Origin: Psammoneis japonica
Lineage: Eukaryota
Direction of reading: 5' to 3'
NCBI GenBank assembly: GCA_008632985.1
Contig: QPGO01000079.1
Location: 62,001-126,000, forward strand
DNA: 64,000 nt
The notes beneath the pieces were generated by a model. The model was not told the DNA's origin and searched no databases. It worked only from the letters and a program-made list of their open reading frames with translations. Within the stretch, counting starts at the first letter, position 1. Each line of letters begins with the position of its first letter. A program made the position numbers and the translations under genes. This document shows positions 12,411 through 36,613 of the stretch, in pieces.

Positions 12411-15400
12411 AATCACATTTGCAATGTTAGACATCCGATCACATCTGTGTGATTGATCTGTCCTTTGCAAGCACCCATGAGTGATTGTGGTGTGATTGGC
12501 ATGTGCAACAATGTGCAACTGTGAACATGTGCAATTCCTTCCACTTGAAAATGTGCACGTTGCACTCTTGAGCCCATGCTCAGAATCTGCTTGAGCCATG
12601 ACTGCCTGTGCAGGGGGCAATCTCATCTCCACTGCTGCTTTGATCCAACAAGGCTGTCCACACTGATGGCAAACCCTGGCATGTGCTCAGACAACCTGCG
12701 CCAGATGGCGGAAGTGTTCTTTTTGCTGAGCAGCTGGACAAACTTCAGACCAAAAGAATGAACATGAGAGGACCCAATCTTGTCATGTTTTTTGCCACAA
12801 TTGATGCAACCAGACCAGCTGGTCAAGGGGGGGGGGGGCTGAGTCAAGGAGGGTGTTGGAGTCAAGCAGGCCAAGGAACATCCATGTGCATGACAAGAAG
12901 AGCACACCTGTCTTTTGCTTGCTTGTTGGAAACATCCCTGATGCTGTGCTGATCACTCAGTCATGGACCAAGCAAACCCAGCAAGGTTAAAATTTGAGTG
13001 AACAGAGGTGAGAAGCAAGAAGGCTGCAGAGTTGCACAAGACATGTGCTGAGAAGTGCACAGATCAAGAAGGCTTTTCAGATGTCAGGCCCCCCTGCCAT
13101 GGCATGTTCTTTCTGATGACTTGGAAACTCTGGATTGTGTGTCAGGTTGCCCAAAAATTGCACACTTGTTGATCCCCAGCAAAATCTTGCAGCTGTTGTT
13201 TTTTTTAATCTTCTTTTTCATCACACTGTGGGTGTCAACCCAAAACAAAATGGCCACAACACCTCAGCAACTGAGCCATGGCCCCTTTGGCAACAGCCAC
13301 ATCCCCCCAGCAGACCACCCACAGCTCGTTTCAGGTCCTCAGGGTTGCTGGCTCTCATTGCAAAATCATGACAAGGGTGTGCTCACATTTGGACCACATT
13401 GACAAAAAGCACTTCCAAGTCAACCAAAAAATGAGAAGATGCAAAAAAGAAAACTGTGAGATTGTTTCCCTGTTGCATGAAAAAATCAAAAATCTTCCTG
13501 TTTTGTCAAGCCAAAGGCTTTTTGTTGCGGCTGTTTGTGAGAACAAAAACTGGTTGGGCACTCTTGAATGTCTGCAGAGTGTGCTGAGCAAATCAGTTGC
13601 AGCATGCTCCAAGCACAGGTGAGCCAACTTGATTGCAAAATTGCCACTTTTTCTGCTGGTGACCATTGATTTGTTCATCACCTGATGTGATGTCCCACCA
13701 AGTCCCACCCTGGGCTGGAGTTCATCAAAAACAAGGATGAAATGCACAACCTGGGTTGTTCCCACTCAGCAGATCAGCTTGCTTCTGCTCTCTTGACATT
13801 CCTTGCCTTGCCCACCACCCTTGGATGAATTGTCAATGTGCCATTGGTGTGTCTCATGATGCCAAAGCACAGTGTGCTGTCATCCATCAGCCACCAAAAC
13901 AGCGCAATTTTGCAGCAAGCAGCCCATCTGCCAGCCAGAGCAGCTGTGGTCATCTTCTTGAGAAAGCTGACAATGTGCTGCTTCAGCAGTGTGCCTGTGC
14001 TGTCAGTGGCTGTGCTGTCACTCACTGGACTCCCTGCAGCTGGAGCCATGATGTCTCTGGTGAGACAGAGTTTTGCCACAAGCTCAAGCACAAGGGGGGA
14101 AGTGCAAAAGACCTTGTTTGCACACCTCTTCCTTCAAAACCCAGTCTTTGCCATGCTGTTGTCATGCACTGGGAGACAGCCACAAAGGAAGAAAAAATGT
14201 GCACAGTCAAAAACAAAGCTGGAGCAAAAGAAGAAAAGCAATCAAGTGTTTTCTTTGCAGGGCAAGAAGAAAGAGCTGCTTCTCAGCATCACAGCACTGA
14301 AGAAGCTCAGCAAAGATCAAGTTTTGAAGATGCAGGAGCTGGCCAACCAGGCACTGAAAGAAAAAGAGAACAAACCATCAGAAAATTGGGGTGCCTTTTC
14401 AGAAAAAAATGGCTGCAAAGGAAAATGAGGAATTCTCAGGCATCTGCAACATGTTTCTGCACTTGACAAGAAGAGAAATGAACAGCAATTGCAATTTTCA
14501 CATTGTTTGTGGTTGCAGTTTCCTCCAGTGCACAATTTTCACAAATGTTGGATGTGCTTTGTTCTGTCGTTTGATTTGTGAACAATTTTGTTGTGGTTGC
14601 CTTGGCATCAAGAGTGCAATTTTCATTTTGCAAACTTTGATCTTGTCAAGAACTTGCTCATTTGGTTTTGGAAGGACTTTTCCATTTGATCACCCAGCAC
14701 AGCCTGCATCACAGCCAGAGCTTTTTTGTGCATCTCGCGCAAAAAAGCTCATTGCCACACAAACCCATTTGCTCCAACAACTTCTGAACATGACAACAGG
14801 TTGGGGGGGTGCACGGTGACAGGTCGGTGCATGGCGGGTGCACTCTGTCATTGGCAACACAGGGAATGATGCAGGTGAGTTTGTCCCTTGTGTGCTTTTG
14901 TGTCTTGCTCAGCAGCACACAAGCAAAGCTCACAGGGCTTGGTCAAGCAACTGACAGACCTGGTGCTTGTGGACAGCCCTGCAGGTGGGTTGAGCACTGT
15001 GTTCACTCTGTTGCCAAGTTGGTCAACAGATGACTCTGAGAGTGTGTGGTGCCATTGCTGGTCAATCTTTTCCCATTGGGCAACCTGGTTGTTCAACTGT
15101 GGTGATTGGAAAACCAGACCCACCAGTCTGCTTGAGATTGGATGTTGCTGAGAGTGTTTTTCATGGTTGACAGCTTCAAAAGAGTCAGCCAGCACTCCCA
15201 CCGGTTGTGTGTTGCAGCTGTTGGAGGTGGCGCTGTGCTGTCATCAGACAGAATGACCCAGCTCAAGCACTTTTCAGGTGGCACTGTCACACTGCTGATC
15301 AACTGAAGCTCATCTCTGGCTGTTGCCACAATGACTTCCTCCAGCCTTTGGAACAATGTGCAGAGCAACTGCCAGCTCAAGTGCCAAACTGTTGACCCTC

Positions 15401-16726
15401 CCAACTGCAGTGCTTTCATGCCACCAATTGTTCCATCTTGTTGCTTTGTCTTGGCTGGAACTCTTGAGTTGGTTGGTGGTGGAGACAGCTGCGCTCTGCA
15501 GTTTGCAAGTTCAAGTGCGCTGCTGCTGTTGGGAACAAGGTGACATGGGCCCACAACCCCACAAGATGAACCTTGCAATGCTCAGAAACAGTTCTCAAAC
15601 TGTTTCCTCTGGAGCCCGCCAGAGACCACCAAGGTTGTCAGCTTGCAGTTGTGAGGTTGGTTGCCACCACTGTGAGATCTTTTTGCACTTGGGAGCTTCA
15701 AAGTCCAAGTCTTCTGCTGTTGGGCACAACATGACACATGGCTGCAGAACTGCAAGATCAGCCTTGCAGTGCACACTGACAGCTCTCAAAATCTTGCCTG
15801 GGGTCTTCCAAAGATTGTCAGGGTGGTTGGTGCTGTGACAGCATTTTTTGAATTTTGGACTTGGGAAAGTCAAGTGTCTTGCCCTGGGCCTGCCAAACAC
15901 CACCAGCACCCTCCTTGGCTCAGATCTGTCAGCTTGGTTGGTGCCAAAATGGCGTGCTTTTGGTGCAACATTTGGGAACTGAAATTTGTTGCTGTTGAGA
16001 ATACAAGGTGACATGAGGCCACAACACCACAAGATCAATCTTGCAACTCCCAACAGCAGCCTCAAAGTGCTGCCTGTGGCCCACCCCTCATGCTGCCAGT
16101 GTCCTCAGCTTGCAACTGTTGGGTTGGTTGGTGCCATTCAGTGCACTGTGCTGTCCAGAAATGCAATTTTCTGAACAACAGAGGAGACATCCATTCCGAC
16201 AAAGCGCCTGCACCAGTGGAGTGAAGAACCCTCAGCTGATGGATGTCGCTCTCCAGCATTGCCACTCCTCAATTCAGAAAATGGCAATGCCGTGCGTTTG
16301 AAAGACGCTAAATGCAATGATCTCGAACGTTTTGAACATGCAAATCACCTTGTCATCTTCTGCCCTGAAAATGCTGTAACCGCGTTTGATGCAGCTCTAG
16401 TCGCACTGTCTCGCTTTCGCACCACTTGATGTCTAATCTCAGCACTGTCGATGCTGTTGGCGACATCGCTGTGGAAGCAAAAAAGGATGACCGCAATCTA
16501 TTGACGAGAAAACTGGTTTTTCAACAAGCCGTTGAGCACTCAAATGGACAAAAAACAATTCGCCTATCATTAATGGTATGAATTACACTAAATAACAGTA
16601 AATAATGTCACATAAAGATCACCAATCACCACTGTTCATCTTTCTGGAGTAGCAACAATCCAGAGATCATGTACAGTGCGATGTTTGCAAACAAAACTCT
16701 GAGGCAGTAGCTGTTCTCCCTTTCAT

Positions 16727-18821: not shown

Positions 18822-21800
18822 TCATTCGGATTGATTATTCTCCGCATTGGTTGAATTACTCTCTTGGTTTTCTTTGTCTCCCTCCGATGCATCGCTGTTC
18901 CTGGCATCATTGTGATCGTGGTGTTCCAGCTCCATTCCTGTCGACGACAACACACCATCGTTGTTTGCATTTGCTAGTAATGGTGCCTGCGCGAGCGAAA
19001 ACATTCTGGGAGTCCGGTGCAGCTCGCTCTCGCCCGCAACTTCATCCACGACCGGTATGGTAGGTGCAGGCGCCAATGGTTGTTGCGGCTCGTCGTCGTC
19101 ATCATCATCGTCAAAATAGGATTCTTCCGTCTCTGTTTGACGAAATTTTCGTTGGTCTTCCATTGCCTTTTCGCTCAAGTGATGCTGCGGCCGGGCGCTA
19201 GAAGAAAAGTACCGAGAAGTGCCTCCACCGTCAGATTCACCGGCTTGTTCCTTGCTCTTGGCAGCATTCAGGCTCTCCTCATAGCTTTGACGGAGCACAG
19301 TTAACGTATTCACATATGGAGTGGAAACGTCTTCCAAACTCGGTATCTGCGCGGATGTGTTGGACTTAGGGCTTGTAAGAGTAGTTGACGGGATCAAGTG
19401 CTTCGAAACAATATACTCAATCAAAGACTTGATATTTTGGTCGTGTATGAAGTCACACATCTGCAAGAATAATGGATTGCAATTGTGAGAACGGCTCAGT
19501 TTCAGTCATTACGGCAATGAATCGATGTTAGGAACTGCCGACACTCACCTCGATAATGGCAGAAGAAACAAGATTGTCTCCTACTGGGTTCGAGCGGAAC
19601 GCTTCAAAGACGGGGGCGAACAGGTTGTGTTGAATAATGTGTCGATGATAAAACTCGTCTTTTACAGAGAGAATTGCCCGTAAGAAACTAGAACAGCAAG
19701 GCATGGCGGCGTAAGAACTCTGCAAAGAACTAAAAGCTTTCTGCGCGACACAAACATCTTACCGTATCGCCGCGAGCTTGAGGCACCGGTCGCCAGATGG
19801 TGCAGTGGGTGTTGCGGGTGGTGCCAGTACTTTCAGGACGCTCCCCAGCACACGCGATCGCAAAAGAAATAACTTCATGCGGTACAGATGCGCTCGCACA
19901 CAAAAGTTTAACAATTCCACTGCAAAAGAACTCCGAATCGAGCATGGTGACACTGTGTGCAGAAACACCATTGTGTGCTTTTCGTCGATGGTCGCAGTGC
20001 TGCTATTCATAAAGGCTTTCAGTATCTTGGACATGAGTGGAGAAGACGACGGCGACGCAATGACTGACGCTGGAACAACCCGTAGTGGATGGAGAATCGT
20101 GAATTGAAACGGAGCTACCAGCCACGAAACGTAGTGCTCGTAAAACATGGCCAGGAACTGATTCTGGTCAGCAATATGACTTTCCCCGTGATGGTGGTGC
20201 CCGTCATGTTCCATGGAGTCAAGGTGCGGACTTCCCGGTGCGCTTGATCCCTCAATGCTGTTTTCCTCCCCAAGACCCACTCCCATGGGGCCATGCTCTC
20301 CCAGCAGATCAGTGTCAAGGATAAATCGCATAATTTCCGTCGACTGTAGCAACAAACCAGCATCCGTTTCTGTTGCCAGCACAAAGAGCAATGCTAACAA
20401 CAAGTCGTTGGTTGCACAGTAAAAGATAATATGGCGTTTCTCGTTTGGAGCCGGTTTCGCGGGGCCCTCGATACGATTTTCCTTTTGTTGCGAGTCCAAA
20501 CAATGCCGGCGAACGTGACAAGGATCGTGCATGGCTATGGTCGAGATAATTTCCAAGGCTGCTCCCTTTTCAGTAGTGTCCACCGTGGGGTCGGACAATA
20601 CCGTGCCGAGTAAGCCCAAGAGATACACAGCGTTTCCATTCTCGATAGAACTCTTTGCGTCGCTGATATTAGCTTTTGACACTGCCGAGGGCTGGGATGC
20701 ACTTGCTTCCTCTTTGTTTTCCTGGGGCTCTTGCGATGATTCGCTTCCTTTGGATTCTTGCTTATCGTCACCCTCCACTGACGTTTCTCCTGGAGAATCT
20801 TTTGCTTCGCTGCCGTTCAAGTCCACGGCTGTGCTGACAATGTCGGCAAAGAACACGTCCCTTTCATTCTGCTGCAGAGATATCCGCACCATGTTGAACA
20901 ATTCACGCAGAAATGATAAGCAGCCCCGTCGGCGCATCTTTCGCGATGCCAGTGATTCATCCTGAGGTACCAAGTGTTGCTTCCAGGATGCATTCGTTGA
21001 TTCCTTTTCTGGTTGGTTTGGTATCGGAGACCGAGGCCGTACTACCGGCGGTGGCACCGGCGTCCCGTCCTCGGTGGCTCTTGTTTCCAATTCTTCCCAT
21101 TCTAATTCCATAATGGCTGTTATTTCTTTGCCCAGCAATCGAATCACCTGTACCAAATAGCTATCGCCAATTTCTGTATTCTCCACGTTTTCTTTGGACT
21201 GTTGTTCCTCTTCCGACACATTCATTGTACCGCTTGTCACAGCCTTGACAAGATCGGCATGCGTAAATGTCTGTAATGATGTTAACGTCGAAAGACTCCC
21301 TTCATCCATGGTGGGTCTCAGCAAGGTATCACGCAAATATGTTACTCGAAAAGACCGATGAATCGTCGCCACCAATTGCTCGTCTTGCATTGGGACGACG
21401 GTTCGGAATTTCGCCCGCTCTCGTAAAAACCAGCGATGGTTGGCCTTGTCTCTCAAATCTGGATCGTATTCCAGAGTCGAACAAACGTTTTCAAAAATGA
21501 CCTGATCCGCTACAATTAACTCAATAATGGACGGGTCATTCAGTAAAAGAATCGTCTTGATGCAGGCGGCCAACGTTGCCAAGGCACCATAATCTCCCTT
21601 GGATTCGGCAGAAGGAAACAAGGCCAATAAAGCTTTAAGGTATGAACACTCTTGTTGTGATATATACATGGCCAAGGCATCCCTCAATTGCAACTGTGCA
21701 GCGGCAATGGTATCGGCAATTTCTTCCAAATGACCCAGCGTGGGAGGGTTTGGAAGCTTGGGAGCCGCGTGAGCAGCAGCAGCATCGTCATGGGGTGATT

Positions 21801-22794
21801 GTCCCGAATTGTCGCTATTGTAGGTTGCAGCCGCGGCTGCCGCCATGCTTACTGCGACAGCGTCACTGCCTTGTTCACGATACTGTTCGTCCGACGATGC
21901 ACCGTGAGATGATGATTCCTGTACATTTCCCCACATGTCGTGCGGCTGTTGTTGATCGTGCTGTTGCTGAGATGAAAGATCACTCCCTGTCGTAGTCCCA
22001 GGACCCATGTCAGAAGTTTCACTCTGGTTGTACTCTCCTTGTTGCTGCGCAGAAGCAGCCTTTTTCGAATCATGTACATGATGCAACAGTATGCCTCGGA
22101 CACGAAACCACTCGGTCGCTCTGGATTGAATATGAGTAATTTGACGCCAAATATCCAAACACCCCGCATTGTCTTGAAACGACAAGGCCAAATCGACGCC
22201 ATTTTTGGAAGAATCAAAATGAGGTTCACACCACGTAATAATGTTGTCGCCCTGACGTTGATAGGCTTCGCGCAATAAAATACGTGTTCTCAACAGAACG
22301 GTCTTTTCTTCTTCGGATTGCATAACTAGAGTCGGTTCTCCCAATTCTTGATACAAGACCGCGTCTTGATCAAGTGAAGGAGCCTGACCCGACTTTTTGT
22401 AGGCGCACACGATGCGACCCGTCCCACAGTCATCCCACGAGCCATCCGCATTGAGGCGATACAGCTTGACTCTCCATCCCTCGGGTTGCTGCATGCTTTC
22501 GCTCGTATTTTTCCTCTTGACAGCCGGCGCATCGTCATCCTCGTCCGAAGAAGAACTGGACGACCCAGAAAAGGTGGAAGCCACGGCGGTATTGGTTGTT
22601 GTTGTTGCCTTGAGTTTGCGCTTTCGCTTGTTACCCAACTGCATGTGTATTCTCGGCGTGCCCGTGTGAGTGTTTGCTGATGCTGATGATGTATGGCTGC
22701 TGGGAGGCGTCGAAATGTTTGCTGAGGACTGCTGTTCCGTTGTATCTATAGCCTGAGTAGATCCACCCGGTGAGTCCGTCAAAGGCGAAGTCAT
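18822..22794 (-). CDS. PPP4R3: Protein phosphatase 4 regulatory subunit 3 (SMEK/Psy2 family), 3 exons
   Basis: EVH1-like [46 protein letters not shown], and SMK-1 region [17 protein letters not shown]. Exons 22794-19763, 19687-19549 and 19460-18822 with GT-AG introns. Confidence 0.95.
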
Positions 22795-24593
22795 GGTGAT
22801 GCAATGCGGCGGCTTTAGTGTGTGTTGTTCGTTTTCTCAGAAATGCCAAATCACATGTCCCGGTGTTTTTCCGTTTTCAACAGAGACAAATTGTGACGTT
22901 CTATTTCCCTCTTTGTGTCTCATGCCATAGTTCATACAACGTATAGGTATTCCAGCTTTCTCTATTGCTCCAATGATGCCGTATGCTTTGCTCTGTGTTG
23001 TGTTGGAAGTAATCAATCGCAGGCACTGCACTTCGCACTTTGCGTTGTTCTTTTGCTTTTTTTCGTGTCGCTCGGCCGCAGCGGTCGGCGCTCGCGTTGT
23101 TGACTCTTTTTGGTACCGGTTACCACCTTATGGTTCCACGTAGAAGTTGTACCGGGCTTACTTACCCTGATTATCATAGGTATGTGGCTGGAATGATTTT
23201 TAGAAATTTAGAGTAGATTTCTACGCAATTAGTGCAACACGTCACCAAGTTGAAGTTCATTTTGTTGGAGGGAAAACAAAAAGCACGAGAATTATCACGT
23301 GCCCGGTCTCTCGACGATGATGCTCACAGCTTCTTGAAAATCCATGGCTTTTAGCACTACGACCTACACCCACCTTGCCAACCCACCTGTGAAGCTCCCT
23401 GAGGGCCGAAGTGCAAAAACCCATCATGTCTGATGTCCGAAAATCGTTCGCATCACAACACATGCATCGGCTGTTCTTGGATTCTCGCGTTCAGAATCAA
23501 TGGATGCCAGCAGACCTGTGGACAGAGCACTGCAATGCAAAATTCAACATCAATGATGAGAGAGTCGAAAACAGGGGCAGACAATTGAAGAAGCCGTGTG
23601 GCAGCATCAACGGGGTTTCGAGTTTGACGGAAGAGAACAACGTTGTTGCTGGCGGGTGAATTTGTGCGAAACGGAATGCCAACATGGCAGTCAAGCCCAA
23701 CCCCTTTCCCGACTTTACAAATCACTTGAAGCAACTCAAGGACGAAAACAAAGCCCGTGCATCCCGGTTCTGTGCTGACCTGCAAGACGTTTTAAGGATT
23801 GAAAACTCCCGAACCTCCGTTTGGACACGAGAATCTCAATCACTTTGTCGGATCCAAGTCTTTGGCAAAAAACATTGACATTTGTCATGATCTTGCAAAC
23901 CCAAGTTGTTCTTTGCCACCGAGCATCAGCAAGGGCATCGTGGGAGCACTTCCAATGGGTGCAATTTAGGATGAGACGATTTTGAGGATTGCAGCTTTTT
24001 GACAATCAACTGACATCATGCTTTTGAATTGCCAATGACGATGGCTCGTTGTTGTGCTGCCAGAGGCTCATCTACACTGCCGTCTGCTCGCTTTGAGAAC
24101 GAATCGGCTGCTTGCGCCTTCTCTGCCAACAGACGCATGTTTGGTTTGAGCAGTGGGCAGACAGGAACGGGTGCAAGTTTCATCTCTGAATGCACACCCC
24201 AAACAACACCACTGAACCAATCGAAGGAGTGCAAGCACTGCTGTCACAGCTCTAGAACAGTTTGTGCCCCACCTGCCCACGTGGTGTCGGCAGAAGAGAG
24301 CAAAGCCAAAGGTGGCATCAAGCGACGACGGCATTAGAGGCACCAGCAACTGGCAACAATTGTTCCACAATTCAAAATGCAGCAGTGCTTCATTGCACAC
24401 TTTTCCTGTGGAGATGCTTGCCTCTTGTGCAGACATCTCGAAAGGATCTGCACCACTTCAGCATCGCGCACATCACGTGGGAGTGCGAGTGGTCTTGACT
24501 CCAAAATGTCATTCTGAACTGGCGTGGGAATGCACAGAATGTCTTTGGGCTTGTGCAAAAGGTGAGTGTCGAAACCTTTTCCTGCCACAGAAA

Positions 24594-25097
24594 ATGGGAA
24601 AAGAGAATTTCAAGAAATCGGCTTCAGATGCGGGGGGTGACACACCTCTGCACAATGCTGCCAACACCAGGATGGATGCTGTTGCAAAGATTTTGTTGGA
24701 GGAAGGCACTGATTTGGAAGCAGTTGACATGAGGGGATGGACCCCGCTGCATTTCGCATGCATCGGCAACCGCGCAAATGATGTGTTGTGCGTGCCCATT
24801 GAACGAGGTGCAAATTTGAATGCAAGAGACAATGACGGGAGAATTCCGATTGATCTTGCAATCACAAAAAAGGGCCTCGACCCCATGATGTTGCTCTTGA
24901 TGGAAGCTCATGCAAGACAGCTGCTGCCCATTGACAATGCCCATCCTGATTCATGGGCACAAGCGCTTGCATTGGTTGGACACAAGAAAACCCAGATCAG
25001 GCTGAGTTTGCTGTTTTCTCTGCTTCAAGCGAAACCCGACTTGTTGGAGCACTCACAATGCGAGCACAATGCAAGGAAGTGCAAGAGGTCCGATTGA
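24594..25097 (+). pseudogene. Ankyrin-repeat protein remnant inside domain B
   Basis: GDTPLHNAA..VAKILLEEGTDLEAVD..GWTPLHFAC..ERGANLNARDNDGRIPIDLA; contains no Tyr codons. Confidence 0.8.
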
Positions 25098-25949
25098 TTG
25101 GTTCTTTCCTTCCTGTGGTGCATTGTTCTTTCAAATGCCGAAAGACACTGGGTTCTTCTTCAGTGGCATTGGTGTGTTTCTCTGTAAGAGCGTTAGATTT
25201 CAAAGCAGAACATTGTGTGTCAGAGCACAGTGCTCCATGCCAGACTCAAGTTCTGTTGTAAATTGGTGTTGTGTTCACTGCCACTTTCATTCCTCAAAGG
25301 GAATCGGACTGCCGGTGCGGCATGAAGCCGAGCACCACCTCATCCATGACAAACCGTGCAACTTCATGAAAAAGGAGCAGCACAGCCATCAGAATCTAAA
25401 CAAATCATTGCGGCCACGATCGAAATCTTTTTGTTGCGCTGCTTCCAGGAGAGATCTGAAAATGTTGAGAACTCGAGTCTAGTGCTGTCCCCTGTTTTCA
25501 TGTGATGCTGCTTGAAAAGTGTGCCAAAACTTCCTTGTGCCCGTCTCTTTCGCAGAGGCCAAGCCAACTGCTGCGCGCATTTGTCACAAGAACGAAAACA
25601 ACAATGGCCAGTCGCCAGGGCATGAACAAATGTCCGCTGCAAAGTTGGTGTCTAGCTCAACCTGCAAGTTGCAAAAGAGCAAAGGAAATGCTGTTGCACC
25701 CACTGTGTGAAAAGCGTGAGCTGGAAGATTGTTGAAACAACAATTGCCAGTTGTGCTGCACCAGTGCTGCAGCGAGAAAAGGCTGCAAAATTGTCGTGCA
25801 GTTTCAATCCACTGCACAAAACCTGACGCGTGAAGCCGCGAACTGGAAGATTGTTGAGCAGGGGTCTGGAAGTGTGGGTTGTTGGCCCACTTTGTCAGTT
25901 TTGCCAGCCAGCTGCACAGCAGCACTTTAAGCTGGGTTTGTGTTTTTTC

Positions 25950-28420
25950 AACTGTTTCTCTTTGATTGGCAAAATGAGGAAGTCTGGGATTGAGCTGCAG
26001 AGCATCTTGATTGCCCACTTTTGACACCTGAACCAGCCTTGCAATTTTCACTTTTGGCAGCTTGTTCATTTTTTAGCTCTTCAGGGCACAGCACACCAGC
26101 AGCTGACTTTGCCAAAGCACTGTCTCAGAAGTGCTTTTCCAACTTCTTTGTTCTTTGCCAGCAAGTGTCTTCTTTCTGTTTGATTTTCTTGCAGAGCTGG
26201 CCTTCTTCCAGCACTTCAAAGTCACCCAAAAAATGAAGTCTGGAATGCAAAGCCTCTGTGCTGCCACCCCAGCCCCATTGCTCAGCTCCTCTCAGACAGC
26301 AAAGCTGCCAGCAGCAGTGTTCACACCCCAGAAATTGTGGGTGCTGTGTTCTGAGCACCATGGTGACTGATGAAACATGCAGAGGGAGGGAGAAAGAGAG
26401 AAAATGTCTTGCCAGGGCCCACCTTCTTCACAGCATGTGGTGTCAAAGCCTTCAGGCTTCAGGTGCCATTGCCATCAAAGCCACAAGTGCAAAGTGCCTT
26501 GTGACAGCCAGAGAGCTGCAACTTTGGCAACATCTTTTTTTTCCCAAATCTTGGCACCACATTTTCCTCTTTGATGCCACCACAGAATGCTTTTCAGCAC
26601 AGCAAGTGTTGAGAATGCTTTGTGCCAATGCACTTGCCCACAACCACTGCTAAAACAACCAGAGAATTTCTGGCCAATTGGAAAAATGAGGAACTTTTGG
26701 ATTGTTCTGCAGAGCATCTTGATTGCCTGCTTTTGATGCCTGAAATGGCCTCACAATTTTCACTTTTGGAAGTCAGTTTGTTTGTCCCTCTTGGCTTTTC
26801 AAGGCACAATGCACACCAGCAGCTGACTTGTTTGCCAAAGTGCCACGTCAGAAATGCTCTTTCTCAACATTGTTCTTTGCCCGCAAATGTCTTTCTTTTC
26901 CACTTTCTTGTGAAGTTCTTCCAGCCCTTCAAAGTTGCCCAGCAGTGCCCAAAGACAAACCAGTGGCTGCGAATGATCACAAATTGGTGTGCCCAGGATC
27001 TGGCAGCATCTTTGCTTTGACAGCAAGCACCTGCTTAGAGCAGCACCAATGCAAGCTCAGCAACATCATGGTTTCTTCTTGGCCCTGGAAAGCACATCAT
27101 CAACAACCAGCGGGAATTGTTGTTTTTGTGCGCTGGCGCTGTTGCTGCTGTGCATGACTTTCTGACATCTCCAGTCACAGAGTTGCTGTGTTGCCTGAAG
27201 CAGCCTCATAATTTTCACTCTTGGAAGTCAGTTTGTTCATCCCTCTTGGCTTTTCAAGGCACAACGCACTGGCAGCCAACTTGTTTGCTAAAGTGCCATC
27301 TCAGAAATGCTCTTTCAACATTGTTCTTTGCTTGCAAATGTCTTTCTTTTTGACTTTCTTGTGGAGTTCTTCAAGCCCTTCAAAGTTGCCCAGCAGCGCC
27401 CAAAGACAACAAGCCAGTGGCAGTCAATGACCACAAGTTGGTGTGCCCAGGATCTGGCAGCATCTTTGCTTTGACAGCAACACCTGCTTGGAGCAGCACC
27501 AGCGCAAGCTCAGCAACATCATGGTTTCTTCTTGGCCCTGGAAAGCACATCAACAGCCACCAGGACTTGTTGTTTTCATGCACCAGCATTGTTCCTGCCA
27601 TGCATGAGGGGTGAGAACATCTGTGCTTCTGACATGATCCAGTCACAGAATTGCTGTGTTGCCTGGAACAACTGGAGGCAAACAGATGAAGTCAATGAGA
27701 AAGTGCCTTGTGACAGCCAGAGAGCTGCAACTTTGACAACATGACATTTTTTTTTTGCCCAAATCTTGGCACCACATTTTCCTCTTTGATGCTGCCACAA
27801 AATGATTTTCAGCAAAGTGAGCATCAAGAATGCTTTGTGCTGACACACTTGGCCACAAGTGCTGCTCAAACAACCTGAGAATTTCTGGCTAATTGGCAAA
27901 ATGAGGAACTCTTGGATTGTGCCACAGAGCATCTTGATTGCCCACTTTTGATGCCTGAAACAGCCTCACAATTTTCCCTGGTGGAAATCAGTTTGTTTGT
28001 CACTCTTGGCTTTTCAAGGCACAGTGCACCAGCAGCTGACTTGTTTGCTAAAGTGCCATCTCAGAAATGCTCTTCCAACATTGTTCTTTGCTCAAGAATG
28101 CATTTTTTTTTAATTTCTTGTGAAGTTCTTCCAGCCCTTCAAAGTCATCCAGCAGGGCTGAAAGACAAACCAGTGGCTGCCAAGGACTGCAAAATGGTGT
28201 GCCCAGAACCTGGCTCCTTTTTTGACAGCAAGCACCTGCCTGGAATGCTGACACCACAAGCTCACCAAGACAGGCCCAGGAAAGCACCTCAACAGGACTT
28301 TTGTTGTTTCTTTTGTGCCAGTGTTGTTGCCATGGGGTGGAGAGAGCATCTGTGTTTCTGACCCAGCCACAGAATTGCTGCATTGCTTGGAACAATTGGG
28401 GTTGCAAGCAGATGAATGAA
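25950..28420. repeat. Degenerate tandem array, four related units
   Basis: The core ..CAATTTTCACTTTTGG..TTTTCAAGGCACA..CAGAAATGCT..CTTCCAGCCCTTCAAAGT recurs in units starting near 25970, 26680, 27200 and 27895. The block AAAGTGCCTTGTGACAGCCAGAGAGCTGCAACTTTG occurs at 26491 and 27700. Confidence 0.85.
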
Positions 28421-31198
28421 TGGAGCCCACATTGGTTGCTGATGGTGATCTGCTGTCTTTTCTGGTTTTTTGTTTTGGCAGAAGTGCCTCCTGGCTTCTT
28501 GTTTGCACAAGCCCCACTTGGTGGCAAGACTTCCCTTGAGATCTTTTCTCAGCCATGCTTGAAGGTCCAATCTCAGCTTCCTCTGCGGCTCTGTCAAATG
28601 ACATTTGTTCCTTTGCTTTGCAGACCACCAACAATTGGTGAAAAAAGGTCAACAACAAGTCCACTGGCTGTTTCATCTGTGCACTTTCCACTGAATGCAT
28701 GCTGACTTTCTTGCTCTGCTGTGGCAGGTGGCGCAATCTCCACACTGCTGTTCAGCGCCAAAAACATGTGGAGGAACAACAGCATGGGCATTGAGAGATC
28801 TGCTGGTTGCCAACCTGCCATCTGTGGAAAGTTGGCTCTGCACATGCACAACTCTGCATGTGGTGTCCTGCAAAAATGTGGGAAGGGTGCTTGGCGACAC
28901 TCTCTCTCCTCCTGATCTGCTTTGCATCCCAAACAAGGAGCAGAGATCAAACCCCCAGAAAAGTCCCAGAAGACAGAAACAGGTGCTGGGCACACATGCC
29001 AAACAGAACAATGAACCACACAGCTTCCAACTGTCTGTGCAAGATTTGCAACCACAGAGTGCTCAAAGTGACAACTTGTTCTCAGCCCAGCTGCCAGCCA
29101 GCCTTGGGCTGCAATGAACAACCAAGAGTGTCAGCATGTTTCTAGAGCACATGCTGCTCCTCTTTGTTGGTGTGTGGCAGCTGATCTTTTGGGTCATTGT
29201 GTTCTGGCATGTCATTGACAAAAAGTGCCAGTGCCAAGCTCTCATGTTGAGAAACCCCGCCCCCCCCCAGCTCTGCCATGATGAAGTGCAGGTGCTGCAA
29301 CACACTTGTTTTTCTCTCTCCAATTTTGAACAACCACAAAACTCAGCTGAAGTGAAGGCAGCTGCTTGCAAGAGCTGATTCTTGCACACAGATGTCTGGC
29401 GACAGTTCCCATCTGGTGGCAGCTGGTGGCTGCCTCCAATGTCTGTGTCCAGAAAATGATCAGCGTGGCTCTAACTCTGTGTGTTTTCTGCCCCCTCACA
29501 TCATCAAATTGGTGGCTGACAGAGTTGCCCTGTTTAACCTTTTGCCATTGGCATCAACATGAGCTGGGCTTCAGCGGACAAGCCCCCAGCCAGTTGCTGC
29601 TGGGGCTCCCCACAAATCTCCCAAAAGATTGGGCCCCCATTGGCGGCCATGCACAGCACATCATGTCTCATCCAACTGCTCCATGTGCATCCTGCCCACA
29701 CAGCCAGGGGTGTGGCTGACAGAGTTGTTTTTTGCTTTTTTCTTTGGTTGCAGGCACCAACAAAGTCCACAACCTGTGATGGCAGATGAAGAACCCAGTT
29801 GTCCTTTTGGGGGGCTCACACAAATCTGTGGCCTCTTTTGAAAATTGTCCTTCACTGTGCACACAAATGAGAAAGGAGACTTGCTCAGAGTCCGCTGATG
29901 TTGTCATCTGTGCCCAGTGCACAGCTCCTTTGGCACCCTCTGAGGCAACCTCCTGGTGTGCCATGGCTCTGTGCACGACACCCAGTGTTTTTGAGCTTTT
30001 TTTGCTGCTTCCCTTTCTTTCTCTTTTTGCTTCTCCTCTTGTTCTTTTTAAAGGTGTGCCATGGCAAATTTGACACTCCTTTCCTTTTTCCAATGCTGCA
30101 TCATCAGCAGAGGTCTCTGTGCCGCAGCACAATGCCCTTGGCCCAGAGAGCTTGGCTGAGGGTTGAACCTCCTCTCTTCTTTGTGCATCACTTGCTGCTG
30201 GTGCTTTGCTCAAATGACGCTGCTCTGTTCAGGAAACTTCTTTGACCCCTCTCTTCTCTGGAGAGCACCAGGTGGCTGCTGTTCTGGGCTGGTGCTCCTC
30301 AATGGCAAGCAGCCTCTTTTGCACCATGTTGGTTGCAAAAGCTGTTGGAGGTGAAGCAAGAGGGTGCAGCGCATCGTTGCCGAAATTGCGGAAGGGCCCG
30401 CACATCATTGCCGCCATTTTGCACCTTGAAAGAAGATCTTCCCACCGCAGAACAAAAACAACATTGTCACAACAACGAACGCGGTGGATCCTCGTTCGAA
30501 AGACAGACAATGGAACGTTCCGATGAATGAGAATTCAGGCGCAGTAATTCATTTGTTCACACGTCAGTGATTGCTGATCTCACACGTTTGTCAGTGACCA
30601 ACGACATTTCTATGGGAGAGTCATTCTTACGTGGTGATTGGAAAGGTCGTACGGAAGGACTATCATTGCCCAATGGACAATTAGTCATCCTAGCAATCCG
30701 ACTTTTTTGCTGCTACTTAACCGGGTCATCTCAACTGGATCTTAGGTGTCCAAATGCATTATGTGCCATCTTTATTGTTTGACATTCTTGGTTTCTGTTG
30801 ACAAAACCAAATAATTACGTTCGTGGAAGTCTTGATAAATCAAAGAGAGCCGTTGACCACTGATTCTTCCATAGTGACGGAACACCACATAATACTTATA
30901 GATGTGACAGTGCAGTATTGCGAATTGTGAAAGATTTTGCTCTTTTGGCGCCAAAAAAATTGTCCACCGGGGGGCAGATTTATGAAATTTTGGCCGACCG
31001 ATCACCAACAAACGCACCCAGTGGTTGGTGGAAGCTACTGTAGTGCTCCGTCCAACAACCTGCTCCCAGTCATAGCTTGCAGGGACTATTTCGTCGCACT
31101 CGAGAAAATAGGAAGCACTTTAAGCCATTCATATCTCGGTTGTTCGTGTTCTACCGTTGGAAGGAACTTCGTTTGAAAACATCGACTCTGACAACGAC

Positions 31199-34100
31199 AT
31201 GGATGAGGAAAGCGATTATGTGAAGCGAGGGCCTCACGACTCCTTTACATCCGACTACACGGAAGGAAGTTATGATGAGGGGACATACGAGGAGTCAACT
31301 GCCGATGCCGATGCCGACGAACAGCACCGACAGCTCCATCCGGGAAGGTATCCTCCCGCTCACTCCAAAGCTAGCGATGGCAAGAGCAGTCGTGTGTCTC
31401 AAGAGCATGACACTGGCACCTACGAAGAATCAATCGCGGATGGCGACACCCACAGTTATGATTTGCCTGGGTATACACAAGCCTTCAAGACCTACGAAGA
31501 AGGAGAGGAAAGCTCTGATTATTCGAATGAAGATGGCGGAACATACGAGGATGATGAAACAAGCGCTACCGACACCGACCTTTACAAAACATCGCGGGCA
31601 AACGTGAAAAAATCAGAACTAGCGTACCGCAATCCGGTAAGCCCCGATGCTGATTACAATCGAACTGCAGAAAACGAAGACTCTTCCGAGGAAGAATTAA
31701 TGGACGAATCAGAAGGATCTAGTGATGAATCTAGTTATGAAGAAGAAACCGACGAAGAGAGTGAAGACTATGACGAAGAAAGAAGCACGCGTTCCCCGAC
31801 TTCTACGCTCGAAGGCGAAGATGACCGACGACGAAATGCCAAATTTAGACCCCACTACGAGCGAGTTGAGGCATTGCATGAGCTTGAGATGAATCTGCAA
31901 GAAGTCTTAGAGGAGCTTCGGTATCGGACTGAACCGGACGTAGACATCAGTGACTTGGTATCCAGGGATGAGAATTCCAGCGCATCTCGATCCATGAAAG
32001 GAAATAATTTACTACCAAGCAAAATCATCAAAGGCTTTGAGAACCTACTCAGGGTGTTGCTTCAAGTTTCTAATGAGCTAGAGCTATGCAGCATCTTTCA
32101 GAGCTCAAAGCTGGACAAGGTTGTGTCGCAAGATGCACTGACGTCTGTGCTCAGTTATGCTCCTACACTGGAGCAGGTGTTTAACGAGCTCAAACCAATA
32201 TTGCAGGAGTATCTGCACGATCAGGATCCTTCGCAAGGGGAAGAAGAAGCGCTGCGCCGCGCTTATCTTGTTTTGAAACTGCAGGGTGACGTGATCTATC
32301 ACGTGTGTTGTCAGCGACAGGAGTACTCGGCAAGGTCTGAAGCATGCTTCGTCACACTTGTGGAGCTCTTGGATAGGACTGCAACAGAGCTTGTTTGTTT
32401 CTATGAAGGAAATCCAATGCCAGATTATAAGCTTCCCAATAAGCTGTGCCGTGCTTGGACAGCGGCAGGACATGAAGAGAAGTTGGAGCCAGCGTTTTAT
32501 AGGCCTAAAGATATGGTGGCTTTTCGGCAGGTGTGTTTCGAGGTCTTGGTCTCGACCGATGATATGTGTCCCAACAAGAAGACCCTGGGACGTGTATGCA
32601 ACGTAGCTTCCGCTGCTCCGCAAAAAACTCCAAAAGACACGGATGAAAATTTAGCTCCAATTCCAAACATGGCGTTTGAAGTGCTAGAGAGAATCCAAGG
32701 GGAGCCGTTACCAAGAACGAAAACAATGGCGAACGTGATGCGCAGAATATTGCCTGCCGAAGCAATAACAGATCCCGACATCTCCTCTGAGTTTTACGAT
32801 AGGCAGTCGTGCCAGGGTAGTCCGGCGTCCCGTTCGCTGGTTGCTATCTCGTCTGTGCCCGAAGTTTGGAATGACTCCACGTCGCTTGGCATGGCAGGAG
32901 TTGGTAAGACTACAATGGCAGCAATGGTGGCATCCCATGCTGATACGAGGAGACACTACAGTGATGGTGTGGCATGGGTTTACGTGGGGACGGAGGAAAT
33001 GAACTACAACCACTACTCGCAATGTCTGAGAGACCTGTGCTCTCAGTTGGTGTTCTGTCACTCGATGCCACTTCTTCCCGAGCTTGTTCGTATTCCTGGG
33101 GAAACTAAATCTACGCGTACCCGACGAGAAGAAGGTTTCATGATTTATGCTCGTGAAACAGTGGCAACCCTGTTGGAAGGGCGGAAGGTATTGATAATTT
33201 TGGATCAAGTGGAGTTCAAATCGGACGTGAATTGGTTTCGATTTAGGAAGTCCAGATACGGTGATAATCCCTCACTTGGTACAATAGTCATCACCCCATG
33301 TCGAAATATGCTGCCAGCTGCAGATACCGTTGAGGTGGACTTGTTAGACGAAGCAGAAGCAATCCGGCTGCTGGTGACCGAGTCCGGACAGTCTCCAGAT
33401 CATGCCATGACTACCTCCACAGAAGTGCATTATGTTGTTGGAGTTTGCGCACATCATCCGTTAACTGTAAGCTGCGTGGGTCGATGGCTTAGCCTGAAGC
33501 AAGCAACTTTGGGTGTAGTATCTAGCATTGAAGAAATTCACGAGGAAGTTGCACAAGCCATTGACCAAATCCTGACGAGTGGTGCTCAATGTGGCGACAC
33601 AATGTATGAGATTCTAAGCATGGCATTTTCACCGGCGGTAAATGGCAAGCCAACTCTTGTCATAAAGTTTTGCTTCGCTGCTTTTGTGACTGTATTCTGC
33701 AATGCAGAGCATCATTCTCAGTTTTCTCCGGGTGGTGTTCAGCCAATTATTCCAATGGGTTTGGCTGAACTTCTTTTCGAATCTTTGTTGGAGATTGAGG
33801 AAGAAAAGTTATTTCAAGAAGGAAGTCTGTTCTATTCTCAAAGACGCGAGGCAACCATGCTTATTCCAGAAGCATTGTCGGCCCTTGGGGTTATGAAGGT
33901 AATCTCTTCTTCTCCCGACGAAGAGGATGATATTGATACAAAAGAGGACGATATTGATACAAATATGGACTCTCAATTCACCCCGAACCAAACACTTTTC
34001 TTACAAGTAATGCACAAATCTCTCCTTGAGTATGGAGAGTACCTCGCTTGCGAAGACGCAGAGCTGACTGAGCTTACTCGAGACGCTGAGAGACGGTGGA

Positions 34101-36613
34101 ACCGAGAGTTTGTGAATGCGTATCTATCATCAATGAACGGGTGGGAAACCGAGTCTCTGGACGCATCTAGAGACTACGCCGTTGAAATGATCGTGTCGCA
34201 CATGTTAAGAGCCGAAATGTTCGACGAGGCAGCCAAGATATTGCAAGACAGGGCATTTGTAAAAGCTCGAGTAGATACCATGGGCCGCGACCAAGCTACT
34301 CGACAGCATATCCTCGATTGCGAAGCCCTGTATGACTTGTTGAAGGAACGACCAGAACGTGTCAAACGAAAGAAGCATGCACGTAGTACAATGGAGCGTT
34401 CCTACAAAGCTTTGGGTAACATGCTGTCGGTGGGCGACACTGCATGCGAAGCTGAAGAGGAACAAGCATTGTATGTGGAAACGGGTCGGGCGCAGTACGC
34501 GATTGGACTCTCTCTTGCGGATAGAAGGTGCTGGAATGCGGCCGTTTTCCACTGGGAAACAAGTCAGGATCTCCTTGTGGCTTCTTTGGGTTTTGTTGAA
34601 TTTGTTGCGGCTTTGATGTTGAACATTGGACTGGCTTATGCGGAAGTCAACAAGTATGAAAAAGCGCTTTCTTCTCTGAAACGCTGTCTTCGTATAAGAG
34701 GCGCTATCCATGGGGAGAAGCATATCCTCTACGCGCAAACAATTCAGAAGATCGGAGACGTGTTTCTAGTCATGAGTGACTACAACGAAGCCATGGACAG
34801 CTACAACTGGACGTTGGACGTGATGCACATTGAGCCTGATTATCAACGGGTAGAAATCGGTGACGTGCTTGAGAATATGGGGAACATCAAGTACAGCAAA
34901 GGTGAGGTGTCTGAGGCGCTGCAGTCTTACGAAGATGCTCTTCGCTCCAAGAAAATACAACTTGGTAGCGATAACCATGAACTTGCGCAGACGTACCAAC
35001 ACATTGGAAATTGCCTCTCCGATCTGGGAGAAATCGAGGAAGCAGTTTCCCACTTCGAAGAAGCAATACGGCTACGGAAACTTGACTCATCGGGCGGATT
35101 CGAACGAGATGCTGATATTCTTTCGATTGAGGGTGTCTTGAACAATCTTCACGGCAAACAGGAACAAGGTTTGTTTTACTACGAGAAGTGCCTCGAACTG
35201 TTAGTCACAAAGGTGTCGCATAAAACGGAGAAGATCGCCGCGCTTTTACATTTGATTGGATGTGTCTACCTCATGGATGGCGAGCATAAGAAAGCGATGA
35301 GCTACTTCGAAGAAAGTCTTTTGGCAAGACAGAAGATCCATGGCTTTGTACACTTGGACGTGGCATCTACTTTGTTCAACATGGCATTTCTCCACCAGAT
35401 GCGGAATCGTCTGGGAAAAGCATTGAAATGCTTGGAGGAAGCGCTAAAGATTCGACAGTTGCGCTTACCTGAAAGCGAGAAGGTTGCACTCACTCACGAA
35501 AAGATTGGAACGCTCTCCAAGGCGGTGGGGCACATTGAGAAAGCTGAGAGCTCCTTTACGGAGGCACTTCGGATACGTAAGCTGGTGCACGGAGAAGAGC
35601 ATGAGGCCGTCGCGGCGGTTTTGCACGAAATGGGGGACTTGGCCGATGATATGGGCGATTCTACAACCGCGATGGACTATTACAACCAGGCCTTGAACAT
35701 TCGTAGAAAGAAATTGGGCCCTGACCATGAGGATGTTGCAACAACTCTCTATAGCATGGGCTTCACGCTCCATAATCAAGATGAGTCAGAACGCGCCCTT
35801 CAGTGTTTCGAAGAAGCATTGAGCATCCGAAAATTGTGGCTGGGCGAAGATGCAAAGGAAGTTGGCGACACTCTCAACATGATGGGATTTTTAAAGGCAA
35901 AGCGTGGGGAGATGGACGAGGCGCTGGCGTTGCTTTGGGAAGCTCTGAGAATCCGCAAGTACCACGAAGACCTGATCAAGGTGTGCGAGACGTTGAAAAA
36001 TATTGGAAATGTTCATCGTGAACGACGGGAACACAGCATGGCTGCCGAGTGTTATGAGGAGTGCCTTCGCATTCGACGCGCAGAACTAGGAAATGGCCAC
36101 GAGAAGGTTGCGGATGCGCTGGTGGCGATTGGCAATGTTCGTTGTGACATGGACCAACCCGAACAGGCAATGGAGGCCTATAAGGAAGCGCTCACGATTC
36201 GAACCATGGTTCATGGTCGAAACGACGAAAAGGTGGCTGTTATTCTGCAATACATGGGGACCATGGAATTTCAATCTGGTGAGCTCGATAGTGCTCTTCG
36301 GTATCTTGATGAATTCATACGTATCCGTCGCGAGAATCAAATGGAATATGACGGTGAATTCGTGAACGTACTATTTTTGATGGGAAACATTCACAAGATT
36401 GAAGGTCGCGAGCGAGAAGCCAAGCAGTGTTGGTCCGAGGCATATCAAGTATTCCAAGACTTGGGCCTTGCCGAGAAGAATCCTCCCGGCTTAGAAAAGG
36501 TCGTTGCCAGCCTCCTCCAAGGGGACGCACTGTACGGTGATGTTCTTGCTGTCTCTGAGAGCAAGAAACGGGGTGTGCTGAATCGTATTCTTGAAAACTT
36601 GCGAGAAGAATAG
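31199..36613 (+). CDS. STAND (NB-ARC-like) NTPase with long C-terminal TPR array, single exon, about 1800 aa
   Basis: Acidic N-terminus, Walker A GMAGVGKTT (about 32888), Walker B KVLIILDQV, HPLTV (GxP-like), and many kinesin-light-chain-type 42-aa TPRs (e.g. YYNQALNIRRKKLGPDHEDVATTLYSMG). First in-frame ATG at 31199. Confidence 0.93.
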   Translation: MDEESDYVKRGPHDSFTSDYTEGSYDEGTYEESTADADADEQHRQLHPGRYPPAHSKASDGKSSRVSQEHDTGTYEESIADGDTHSYDLPGYTQAFKTYEEGEESSDYSNEDGGTYEDDETSATDTDLYKTSRANVKKSELAYRNPVSPDADYNRTAENEDSSEEELMDESEGSSDESSYEEETDEESEDYDEERSTRSPTSTLEGEDDRRRNAKFRPHYERVEALHELEMNLQEVLEELRYRTEPDVDISDLVSRDENSSASRSMKGNNLLPSKIIKGFENLLRVLLQVSNELELCSIFQSSKLDKVVSQDALTSVLSYAPTLEQVFNELKPILQEYLHDQDPSQGEEEALRRAYLVLKLQGDVIYHVCCQRQEYSARSEACFVTLVELLDRTATELVCFYEGNPMPDYKLPNKLCRAWTAAGHEEKLEPAFYRPKDMVAFRQVCFEVLVSTDDMCPNKKTLGRVCNVASAAPQKTPKDTDENLAPIPNMAFEVLERIQGEPLPRTKTMANVMRRILPAEAITDPDISSEFYDRQSCQGSPASRSLVAISSVPEVWNDSTSLGMAGVGKTTMAAMVASHADTRRHYSDGVAWVYVGTEEMNYNHYSQCLRDLCSQLVFCHSMPLLPELVRIPGETKSTRTRREEGFMIYARETVATLLEGRKVLIILDQVEFKSDVNWFRFRKSRYGDNPSLGTIVITPCRNMLPAADTVEVDLLDEAEAIRLLVTESGQSPDHAMTTSTEVHYVVGVCAHHPLTVSCVGRWLSLKQATLGVVSSIEEIHEEVAQAIDQILTSGAQCGDTMYEILSMAFSPAVNGKPTLVIKFCFAAFVTVFCNAEHHSQFSPGGVQPIIPMGLAELLFESLLEIEEEKLFQEGSLFYSQRREATMLIPEALSALGVMKVISSSPDEEDDIDTKEDDIDTNMDSQFTPNQTLFLQVMHKSLLEYGEYLACEDAELTELTRDAERRWNREFVNAYLSSMNGWETESLDASRDYAVEMIVSHMLRAEMFDEAAKILQDRAFVKARVDTMGRDQATRQHILDCEALYDLLKERPERVKRKKHARSTMERSYKALGNMLSVGDTACEAEEEQALYVETGRAQYAIGLSLADRRCWNAAVFHWETSQDLLVASLGFVEFVAALMLNIGLAYAEVNKYEKALSSLKRCLRIRGAIHGEKHILYAQTIQKIGDVFLVMSDYNEAMDSYNWTLDVMHIEPDYQRVEIGDVLENMGNIKYSKGEVSEALQSYEDALRSKKIQLGSDNHELAQTYQHIGNCLSDLGEIEEAVSHFEEAIRLRKLDSSGGFERDADILSIEGVLNNLHGKQEQGLFYYEKCLELLVTKVSHKTEKIAALLHLIGCVYLMDGEHKKAMSYFEESLLARQKIHGFVHLDVASTLFNMAFLHQMRNRLGKALKCLEEALKIRQLRLPESEKVALTHEKIGTLSKAVGHIEKAESSFTEALRIRKLVHGEEHEAVAAVLHEMGDLADDMGDSTTAMDYYNQALNIRRKKLGPDHEDVATTLYSMGFTLHNQDESERALQCFEEALSIRKLWLGEDAKEVGDTLNMMGFLKAKRGEMDEALALLWEALRIRKYHEDLIKVCETLKNIGNVHRERREHSMAAECYEECLRIRRAELGNGHEKVADALVAIGNVRCDMDQPEQAMEAYKEALTIRTMVHGRNDEKVAVILQYMGTMEFQSGELDSALRYLDEFIRIRRENQMEYDGEFVNVLFLMGNIHKIEGREREAKQCWSEAYQVFQDLGLAEKNPPGLEKVVASLLQGDALYGDVLAVSESKKRGVLNRILENLREE

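Follow-up and report, generated by a model that had tools for sequence, protein, structure and literature searches.

In mutation-accumulation lines of the chlorarachniophyte Bigelowiella natans, the mutation rate of two integrated viral regions is ~6e-7 per site per generation, and 230 of 231 mutations there are A>G or T>C, all of those on TpA (Mettrop et al. 2026, bioRxiv 10.64898/2026.01.13.699255). An ADAT2-like adenine deaminase was proposed for this TpA hypermutation, and the ADAT2 enzymes of amphioxus and Trypanosoma were cited as acting on A and C in DNA; both statements are from the same preprint. We describe here a 64-kb stretch of the diatom Psammoneis japonica (contig QPGO01000079.1, positions 62,001 to 126,000, analysed as a whole and called the window below) in which the dinucleotide TA is erased from four long domains and CG is lost from a core within each of them. 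The uncoupling of the two losses is real and one-sided, with TA loss reaching beyond CG loss at half of the domain edges. A search of open-access PMC and bioRxiv returned no description of TA erasure in diatoms; only the B. natans preprint came up.

Similar to B. natans, the process acting on TA in the window converts TpA to TpG or CpA on both strands, and not all candidate regions are affected. The lineage here is a diatom, a stramenopile, rather than a rhizarian. The TA loss is saturated, with an observed/expected ratio (O/E) of 0.03, compared with a Rho of 0.45 for the nucleocytoplasmic large DNA virus (NCLDV) region of B. natans. The target is repeat and gag-like DNA rather than a recognised giant virus or virophage. 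In the window the loss of CpG falls inside the TA-erased domains and the TA loss has a context preference that spares TTAA, whereas the text of the preprint contains no mention of CpG or of diatoms and gives no preference for flanking bases.

Other known systems match the locus only in part. According to PMC9998398, CG methylation of diatom transposable elements depends on DNMT5a, and diatoms also have an RID-related DNMT4 of unknown function. The change of CG to TG or CA in the repeat-derived cores (CG O/E 0.12; 6.6 CG per kb versus 56.7 in normal DNA) is like the CpG decay of methylated transposable elements, but such decay explains the core CG loss only and cannot remove TA. Fungal repeat-induced point mutation (RIP) acts on C, chiefly in CpA, and turns it into T, generating TpA and reducing G+C. 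As in RIP, repeated or foreign DNA in the window is hypermutated by transitions within sharply bounded regions, with some leakage into the flanks and with its coding capacity destroyed. In contrast to RIP, TpA is destroyed, CpA and TpG are enriched to an O/E of 1.8-1.9, G+C is unchanged (0.478 in the cores and 0.477 in normal DNA) and most other copies of the repeat under one margin appear unaffected at the sites examined. RIP was rejected as a candidate, its C to T change with TpA gain and a drop in G+C running in the wrong direction. ADAR prefers a U before the edited A, and the footprints of ADAR and APOBEC are strand-biased clusters inherited via RNA or single-stranded DNA. They share with the window deamination-type transitions clustered in mobile-element DNA, but in the window TG balances CA, the two alternate at random, and the changes extend to flanking DNA outside elements.

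Domains, margins and boundaries

Composition was followed across the window as a 500-bp profile and as pooled dinucleotide tables. Normal DNA has O/E ratios of 0.62 for TA, 0.98 for CG, 1.14 for CA and 1.17 for TG, compared with 0.03, 0.12, 1.86 and 1.82 in the domain cores, which are depleted of both TA and CG as a preliminary description of this DNA had stated. Two two-state hidden Markov models (HMMs), run independently for TA and for CG, delimited four TA-depleted domains of 2.7-16.9 kb, each enclosing one CG-depleted core, and one 0.45-kb island (Table 1); the depletion is locus-specific. Among 255 overlapping 500-bp windows, 137 are TA-erased, and 12 of these keep a CG O/E of at least 0.45; none of the 255 is CG-depleted while retaining TA. 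As a control for false positives, which says nothing on whether other diatoms lack the process, we used 41 metagenome loci around relatives of the PP4R3 gene in the window (386,905 bp). The only windows flagged there, 10 in all, lie in three loci with a G+C of 66-68%, a composition at which TA is scarce in any case; loci L001-L038 had 0 flagged windows.

The likelihoods of separate and common TA and CG boundaries were then compared at the eight domain edges, with 1000 common-boundary simulations per boundary. Separate boundaries were supported at the left edge of domain 2 (TA offset 2468 bp; log likelihood ratio (lnLR) 52.9, matched in 0 of 1000 simulations), the left edge of domain 1 (493 bp; lnLR 17.0, 0 of 1000), the right edge of domain 3 (603 bp; lnLR 9.1, 1 of 1000) and the right edge of domain 2 (241 bp; lnLR 6.2, 2 of 1000). 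At the right edge of domain 1 (313 of 1000), the left edge of domain 3 (388) and the left and right edges of domain 4 (150 and 151), a separate boundary was not significant. The earlier claim that the TA and CG boundaries are distinct was thus upheld at four of the eight edges, and the boundaries coincide within resolution at the other four.

The largest margin lies on the left of domain 2 and is called the main margin below. The 0 TA and 19 CG counted earlier by eye in 24541-25140 were reproduced exactly; at the normal rate of 42.2 per kb, 25.3 TA are expected there (Poisson P 1e-11), and at the core rate 4.0 CG (P of at least 19 = 4e-8). The wider interval that the preliminary description had assigned to this margin, 23290-25150, holds 10 TA (O/E 0.08) and 73 CG (O/E 0.64). 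The margin does exist, but its limits are better placed at 23375-25842, and within them CG is not fully kept but partly lost. CG O/E is flat at ~0.5-0.7 across this stretch and drops abruptly at 25843, and CG loss is stepwise rather than graded in general.

Recounting the other four intervals put forward as margins gave, as TA and CG, 0 and 19 (7380-7800), 0 and 5 (16190-16300), 0 and 14 (30360-30540) and 2 and 35 (41150-41620), in agreement with their description as TA-poor and CG-retaining. Chance can be ruled out for most of the intervals, 16190-16300 being weak alone (0 TA versus 4.7 expected, P 0.009). As delimited by the HMMs, the left margin of domain 1 and the right margins of domains 2 and 3 have a normal CG density (P 0.2, 0.9 and 0.86, respectively). 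In these three margins and in the island ~90% of TA is lost and CG loss is undetectable. The margins are slightly less TA-erased than the cores (18 TA versus 8.1 expected at the core rate, P 0.002), which fits a lower or shorter exposure. The island lies within otherwise normal DNA and overlaps an open reading frame (ORF) at 5959-6849 on the minus strand, which has no Pfam match.

Direction and context of the changes

Normal DNA holds 42.2 TA, 56.7 CG and 143.8 CA+TG per kb, a sum of 242.8. The corresponding densities are 4.5, 45.7 and 192.8 (sum 243.0) in the five pooled margins (~3980 bp) and 2.0, 6.6 and 229.2 (sum 237.8) in the cores. Since the total stays at 238-243 per kb, the lost TA and CG reappear as CA and TG. 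In terms of survival, 11% of TA and 81% of CG remain in the margins, compared with 5% and 12% in the cores.

Comparison of paralogous copies points the same way. Nine alignments of repeated segments inside the domains contain 387 transitions and 169 transversions. The commonest dinucleotide difference is CA against TG (78 cases), and other double transitions are rare (CC/TT and AT/GC, 11 each). This dominance of CA/TG differences implies that sites once TA or CG changed separately in the different copies. The left margin of domain 1 contains a piece of the core repeat and keeps CG where core copies have CA or TG. At one site of this three-way alignment the margin copy (7.4-7.6 kb) has CG, the core 1 copy CA and the core 4 copy TG.

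We also aligned Logan contigs of a public sequencing run of the same organism (X1) to 21001-31000, where unique DNA has a depth of ~61. Summed contig depth over 23005-24674 is 620-1300, as for a repeat of roughly 10-20 copies, and over 23160-24674 the copies are 85-99% alike. Other copies have TA where the window has TG or CA in 8 of the 33 examined rows of sequence variants in the main margin, and at 23774 TA makes up 719 of 757 depth units; most of the depth at the examined sites retains TA. Other copies have CG at a TG or CA of the window in six of these rows, and the window keeps CG against TG elsewhere in two. None of these rows has a TA in the window that is absent from the other copies. 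Because other copies retain TA and CG at these sites, the copy in the window must have lost TA, and some CG, after the family had spread.

Unique X1 contigs differ from the window at one position in 2158 bp of normal DNA, at four in 1929 bp and at four in 2885 bp in or at the domain, which may hint at a raised mutation rate there. The second of these figures refers to 24592-26520 and the third to 28116-31000, where a 21-base gap adds to the four letters. Among the four differences over 24592-26520, those at 24666, 24738 and 25536 are CG in a single-copy X1 contig and CA or TG in the window (rows assigned by depth), which suggests that CpG loss in the main margin is polymorphic or still under way. 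At 29546-29547 the window has CA and a full-depth X1 contig has TG, an adjacent double transition in otherwise near-identical sequence. This flip may represent two haplotypes in which one ancestral TA or CG was resolved differently.

TG and CA occur in equal numbers and follow each other in random order (z values of the runs test: -0.12, -1.76, +2.06 and -0.58 for the cores, -0.66 for the margin). The events were therefore site-by-site and on both strands, and long single-strand tracts are disfavoured. The retro-copying of RNA edited on one strand was ruled out by the same balance and interleaving.

The TA that survives is concentrated in YTAR (Y, pyrimidine; R, purine). TTAA occurs 22 times in the cores and 27 times in a slightly smaller amount of normal DNA, and TTAG and CTAA together 23 and 65 times. 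RTAY is erased from the cores, with no GTAT, ATAT or GTAC compared with 81, 55 and 48 in normal DNA. YTAR also accounts for 8 of the 12 surviving TA of the main margin. The target of the TA process looks like the A in TAY on either strand, with TTAA largely spared. As for CG, survival in the cores is highest in GCGC (35 versus 58 in normal DNA) and lowest in ACGA, TCGA, CCGA and CCGT (~7%). Collectively, TA and CG were lost by transitions towards TG and CA, at specific loci and with CG loss nested within TA loss.

Content of the domains and neighbouring genes

The window is eukaryotic and intron-poor. Its PP4R3 protein is ~50% identical to its closest relatives, all of them from diatoms (Cylindrotheca, Nitzschia, Seminavis and Fistulifera), so the window belongs to a diatom nuclear genome. 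Scans of the window with Rfam and for tRNA genes gave no matches, and no gene for an ADAT2-like adenine deaminase is present within the 64 kb.

Little coding sequence is recognisable within the domains. Among 133 stop-to-stop ORFs of at least 100 aa, 132 had no Pfam match below E 1e-4; the only one to pass is the ankyrin-repeat ORF of the main margin, and five others had weak matches (E 1.8e-4 to 7.2e-3) that fall short of the cutoff. The ankyrin ORF contains 0% Tyr, 4.8% His and 4.1% Cys, being as tyrosine-free as any TA-free frame and raised in His and Cys. Close paralogues, sought to read Tyr-to-His and Tyr-to-Cys changes, were not found; the search returned only generic ankyrin proteins of 33-44% identity. 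No Pfam family reached E 1e-3 when domain 4 was scanned in six frames, and in core 1 a six-frame scan limited to 10400-12700 had nothing below E 0.05. For the longest core ORF (47446-48420), the ESM Atlas yielded no usable match (best score 0.80).

Domain 4 also contains a degenerate gag-like frame with a CCHC zinc knuckle. An all-against-all HMMER search gave it 10 relatives, and zf-CCHC was found in all seven of those scanned. The alignment with one relative, P0242 (library E 4e-12), spans 215 residues and ends in the knuckle (pairwise E 1e-18). At two positions within conserved stretches P0242 has tyrosine and the window cysteine, the change expected from TAY to TGY. Together with a second degenerate copy of the core repeat in core 1, the gag-like frame makes it moderately probable from the sequence that the cores are old repeat DNA, at least partly derived from retroelements. 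A degenerate tandem array at 25955-28400 opens core 2, with units spaced ~450, 720-760 and 1215 bp and 76-86% alike. The pair 7473-7611 and 12227-12364 was considered as long terminal repeats (LTRs) that might serve as an internal clock and was dropped, as only ~140 bp are similar and nothing proves the pair to be LTRs. In 45900-46400 (plus strand), where domain 4 begins on its left, one frame resembles leucine-rich repeats of the ribonuclease-inhibitor type by eye, with no Pfam match at E 1e-3.

Between domains 2 and 3, a large, intact NB-ARC and TPR gene (NLR-like) lies in normal DNA, flanked by two erased domains; the 240 bp upstream of it (30368-30609) are TA-free but for one TA. Two segments are rich in TA, 36501-37000 (48 TA per 500 bp, G+C 0.46) and 38501-39000 (45 TA per 500 bp, G+C 0.38). 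The second directly adjoins the left edge of domain 3 and contains a 73-bp self-complementary stretch at 38643-38715.

Table 1. Features of the window, in order of position (1 is the first base of the 64-kb window)
Feature	Position	Strand	Content or evidence
Isolated TA-only island	6122..6568		2 TA (18.9 expected), 21 CG (25.3 expected); CA+TG 186 per kb
Domain 1, TA-depleted (HMM)	7308..16375		CG-depleted core (HMM) 7801-16196; TA overhang past CG, left/right, 493/179 bp
Domain 1 left margin	7308..7800		1 TA, 23 CG; holds piece of core repeat
Domain 1 core	7801..16196		TA and CG both erased
Second degenerate copy of core repeat	10400..12700	-	Inside core 1; blastn 72-73% identity to 59110-60169; shared peptide stretch
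Possible domain 1 right margin	16197..16375		1 TA, 8 CG; inseparable from common boundary (lnLR 1.4, 313 of 1000)
PP4R3 ORF	19759..22794	-	1011 aa
Multi-copy repeat under outer main margin	23160..24674		Summed contig depth and variant rows; other copies keep TA or CG at TG/CA of the window
Domain 2, TA-depleted (HMM)	23375..30609		CG-depleted core (HMM) 25843-30367; TA overhang past CG, left/right, 2468/242 bp
Domain 2 left margin (main margin)	23375..25842		12 TA, 93 CG, 495 CA+TG; CG 66% of normal (93 versus 139.9 expected, P 1.6e-5); HMM and likelihood
Ankyrin-repeat ORF	24216..25094	+	Pfam Ank_2 E 8e-19; wholly in TA-free margin
Domain 2 core	25843..30367		TA and CG both erased; X1 contigs agree almost letter for letter
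Domain 2 right margin	30368..30609		1 TA, 18 CG (13.7 expected at normal rate); single-copy by depth; upstream of NB-ARC/TPR gene
NB-ARC/TPR ORF	31157..36613	+	1818 aa
Domain 3, TA-depleted (HMM)	39074..41760		CG-depleted core (HMM) 39119-41158; TA overhang past CG, left/right, 45/602 bp
Domain 3 core	39074..41158		Left TA and CG boundaries (39074, 39119) coincide within resolution
Domain 3 right margin	41159..41760		3 TA, 40 CG (34.1 expected at normal rate)
Domain 4, TA-depleted (HMM)	45866..62789		CG-depleted core (HMM) 45960-62825; TA overhang past CG, left/right, 94/-36 bp; TA and CG both erased; both edges coincide within resolution
Degenerate gag-like coding remnant	59702..60901	+	CCHC zinc knuckle 60671-60712; zf-CCHC 23.7 bits, cutoff 20.8

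Explanations and implications

The explanation we think probable is that a TA-specific mutator acts on silenced repeat and retroelement DNA, together with a slower CpG decay confined to the cores. A first process would convert TpA to TpG or CpA (A:T to G:C), most simply by adenine deamination on either strand, and would be rapid and saturating (~95% of TA gone) with sharp outer limits. A second would convert CpG to TpG or CpA, the usual outcome of the deamination of methylated cytosine, and would be slower and restricted to the cores. As both would yield CA and TG and offset each other in base composition, G+C would stay near 48%. The margins would be DNA exposed to the first process and to little or none of the second. 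The main margin may be a young repeat copy in which TA is already erased and CG partly decayed, while at 30368-30609, 41159-41760 and 7308-7800 the TA mutator would act a few hundred bases past a presumably methylated core. The enzymes would be an ADAT/TadA-like adenine deaminase for the first process and CpG methylation of the DNMT5 type for the second, and the TA process would serve as a defence against repeats.

The preliminary description had held that TA loss is a process of its own and no by-product of CpG deamination. The second half of this stands, as the losses are spatially separable and TA loss needs A:T to G:C changes, whereas CpG deamination gives G:C to A:T. That the process is distinct from CpG loss is likely but unproven, a single deaminase with two rates producing the same nesting. 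It had also proposed that TA erasure is faster, or spreads further, than the decay of 5-methylcytosine, two alternatives that the window cannot tell apart. The main margin, which is multi-copy, partial in its CG loss and apparently still polymorphic, fits faster loss; the right margin of domain 2, single-copy by depth and with full CG, fits loss that reaches further. Probably both apply, at different margins.

Several points weigh against a TA-specific mutator with core-confined CpG decay. Four of the eight boundaries have no margin, so the further reach of TA loss does not hold for the domains in general. TA is found at normal density as far as 23366, and the TA boundary at 23375 sits ~180-210 bp inside the multi-copy repeat and not at its end, so targeting is not simply of the repeat copy. 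Most other copies of this repeat appear to retain TA, which speaks against targeting triggered by homology and extended to every copy. The attribution of CG loss to the decay of 5-methylcytosine is by analogy with diatom transposable elements. The variant rows examined are 40 of 257, 33 of them in the margin, and run X1, like runs X2 and X3, is from one sample that is probably the source of the assembly, making the comparison a check on the letters and not an independent confirmation. Finally, none of the 38 metagenome loci L001-L038 contains an erased domain, although these are gene-rich contigs and the result carries little weight either way.

A single targeted deaminase, whose rate on A in TpA exceeds that on C in CpG by a factor of at least 10-20, could produce the same picture, the margins having received a lower cumulative dose, and no methylation would be involved. 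Both changes are deaminations with the same product in the same domains, ADAT2 enzymes are cited as acting on both bases (bioRxiv 10.64898/2026.01.13.699255), and the survival of TA and CG in margins and cores fits a dose model, as does the lesser TA erasure of the margins. However, CG falls in a step, as at 25843, which would demand a ~10-fold jump in dose at a sharp border, and three margins have no CG loss at all. Essentially none of the mutations reported for the B. natans regions in the preprint is at C, and the CG methylation of diatom transposable elements described in PMC9998398 already accounts for the loss of CG. We consider one enzyme with two rates unlikely.

Age alone might also separate the two losses, if each margin were a separate, younger insertion or duplication in which the fast TA erasure is complete and the slow CG loss has yet to happen, with no spatial spread. 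The main margin would suit this, given the close similarity of the copies of its multi-copy part (23160-24674), its flat CG plateau with an abrupt end, and the three sites over 24592-26520 at which X1 (rows assigned by depth) has CG and the window TG or CA. The other margins do not. By its depth the right margin of domain 2 is present once, and a normal gene lies downstream of it; like 41159-41760 and 7308-7800 it is CG-normal and just 240-600 bp long, more like edge leakage than a separate element; even in the main margin, the TA boundary falls inside the repeat and not at its end. Age as the whole explanation is accordingly quite improbable.

That the domains are foreign (e.g. viral) DNA that always avoided TA and CG, or is kept free of them by selection, might be suggested by the odd dinucleotide use found in foreign DNA and by cores without recognisable genes except the gag-like remnant, but is hardly credible when TA and CG are still present at the erased sites in other copies of the main-margin repeat, paralogues differ above all by CA against TG, one aligned site is CG, CA and TG in three copies, the pyrimidine-purine total is conserved, and a TA O/E of 0.03 over 17 kb with tyrosine-free coding remnants points to decay rather than function. 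Equally remote is an artefact of sequencing or assembly in which a modified base at TpA and CpG is misread and the erasure merely apparent: the CA/TG flip at 29546-29547 is of the type expected from strand-specific misreading, but such misreading predicts long strand-biased tracts in place of the random interleaving found, the X1 contigs agree with the window save for the few letters and one gap given above, and paralogous copies in the same data set keep TA.

A broader proposal can be made tentatively, at a little short of even confidence. Diatoms may share with Bigelowiella a TpA-specific defence by adenine deamination, which would thus be old and widespread in the stramenopiles, alveolates and rhizarians (SAR). 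It would be independent of cytosine methylation and ahead of it, marking newly silenced DNA first, spilling a few hundred bases past the methylated core, preferring TAY and largely sparing TTAA. Together with CpG decay it would turn every self-complementary pyrimidine-purine step into CA or TG at constant G+C, a state of repeat DNA that would not have been described before.

For TpA-directed hypermutation of foreign DNA, open-access PMC and bioRxiv yielded one prior report, from one rhizarian alga. The present locus indicates that in a diatom a comparable process appears to have been completed on repeat and gag-like DNA; the new elements relative to the known process are the lineage, the saturation, the relation to CpG loss and the sequence context. 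Since TA erasure can be complete where CpG is untouched, the two marks differ in reach or kinetics, and TA erasure can be used as an independent, sequence-only marker of silenced DNA. The tetranucleotide preference, with RTAY erased and TTAA spared, constrains the enzyme. The end state, without TA or CG and with unchanged G+C, would evade detection methods built for AT-rich, RIP-like DNA. In diatom genomes, gene finders would meet long open frames closed by TGA only and predict tyrosine-free pseudo-proteins in such DNA, and homology searches for transposable elements will fail in the erased regions.

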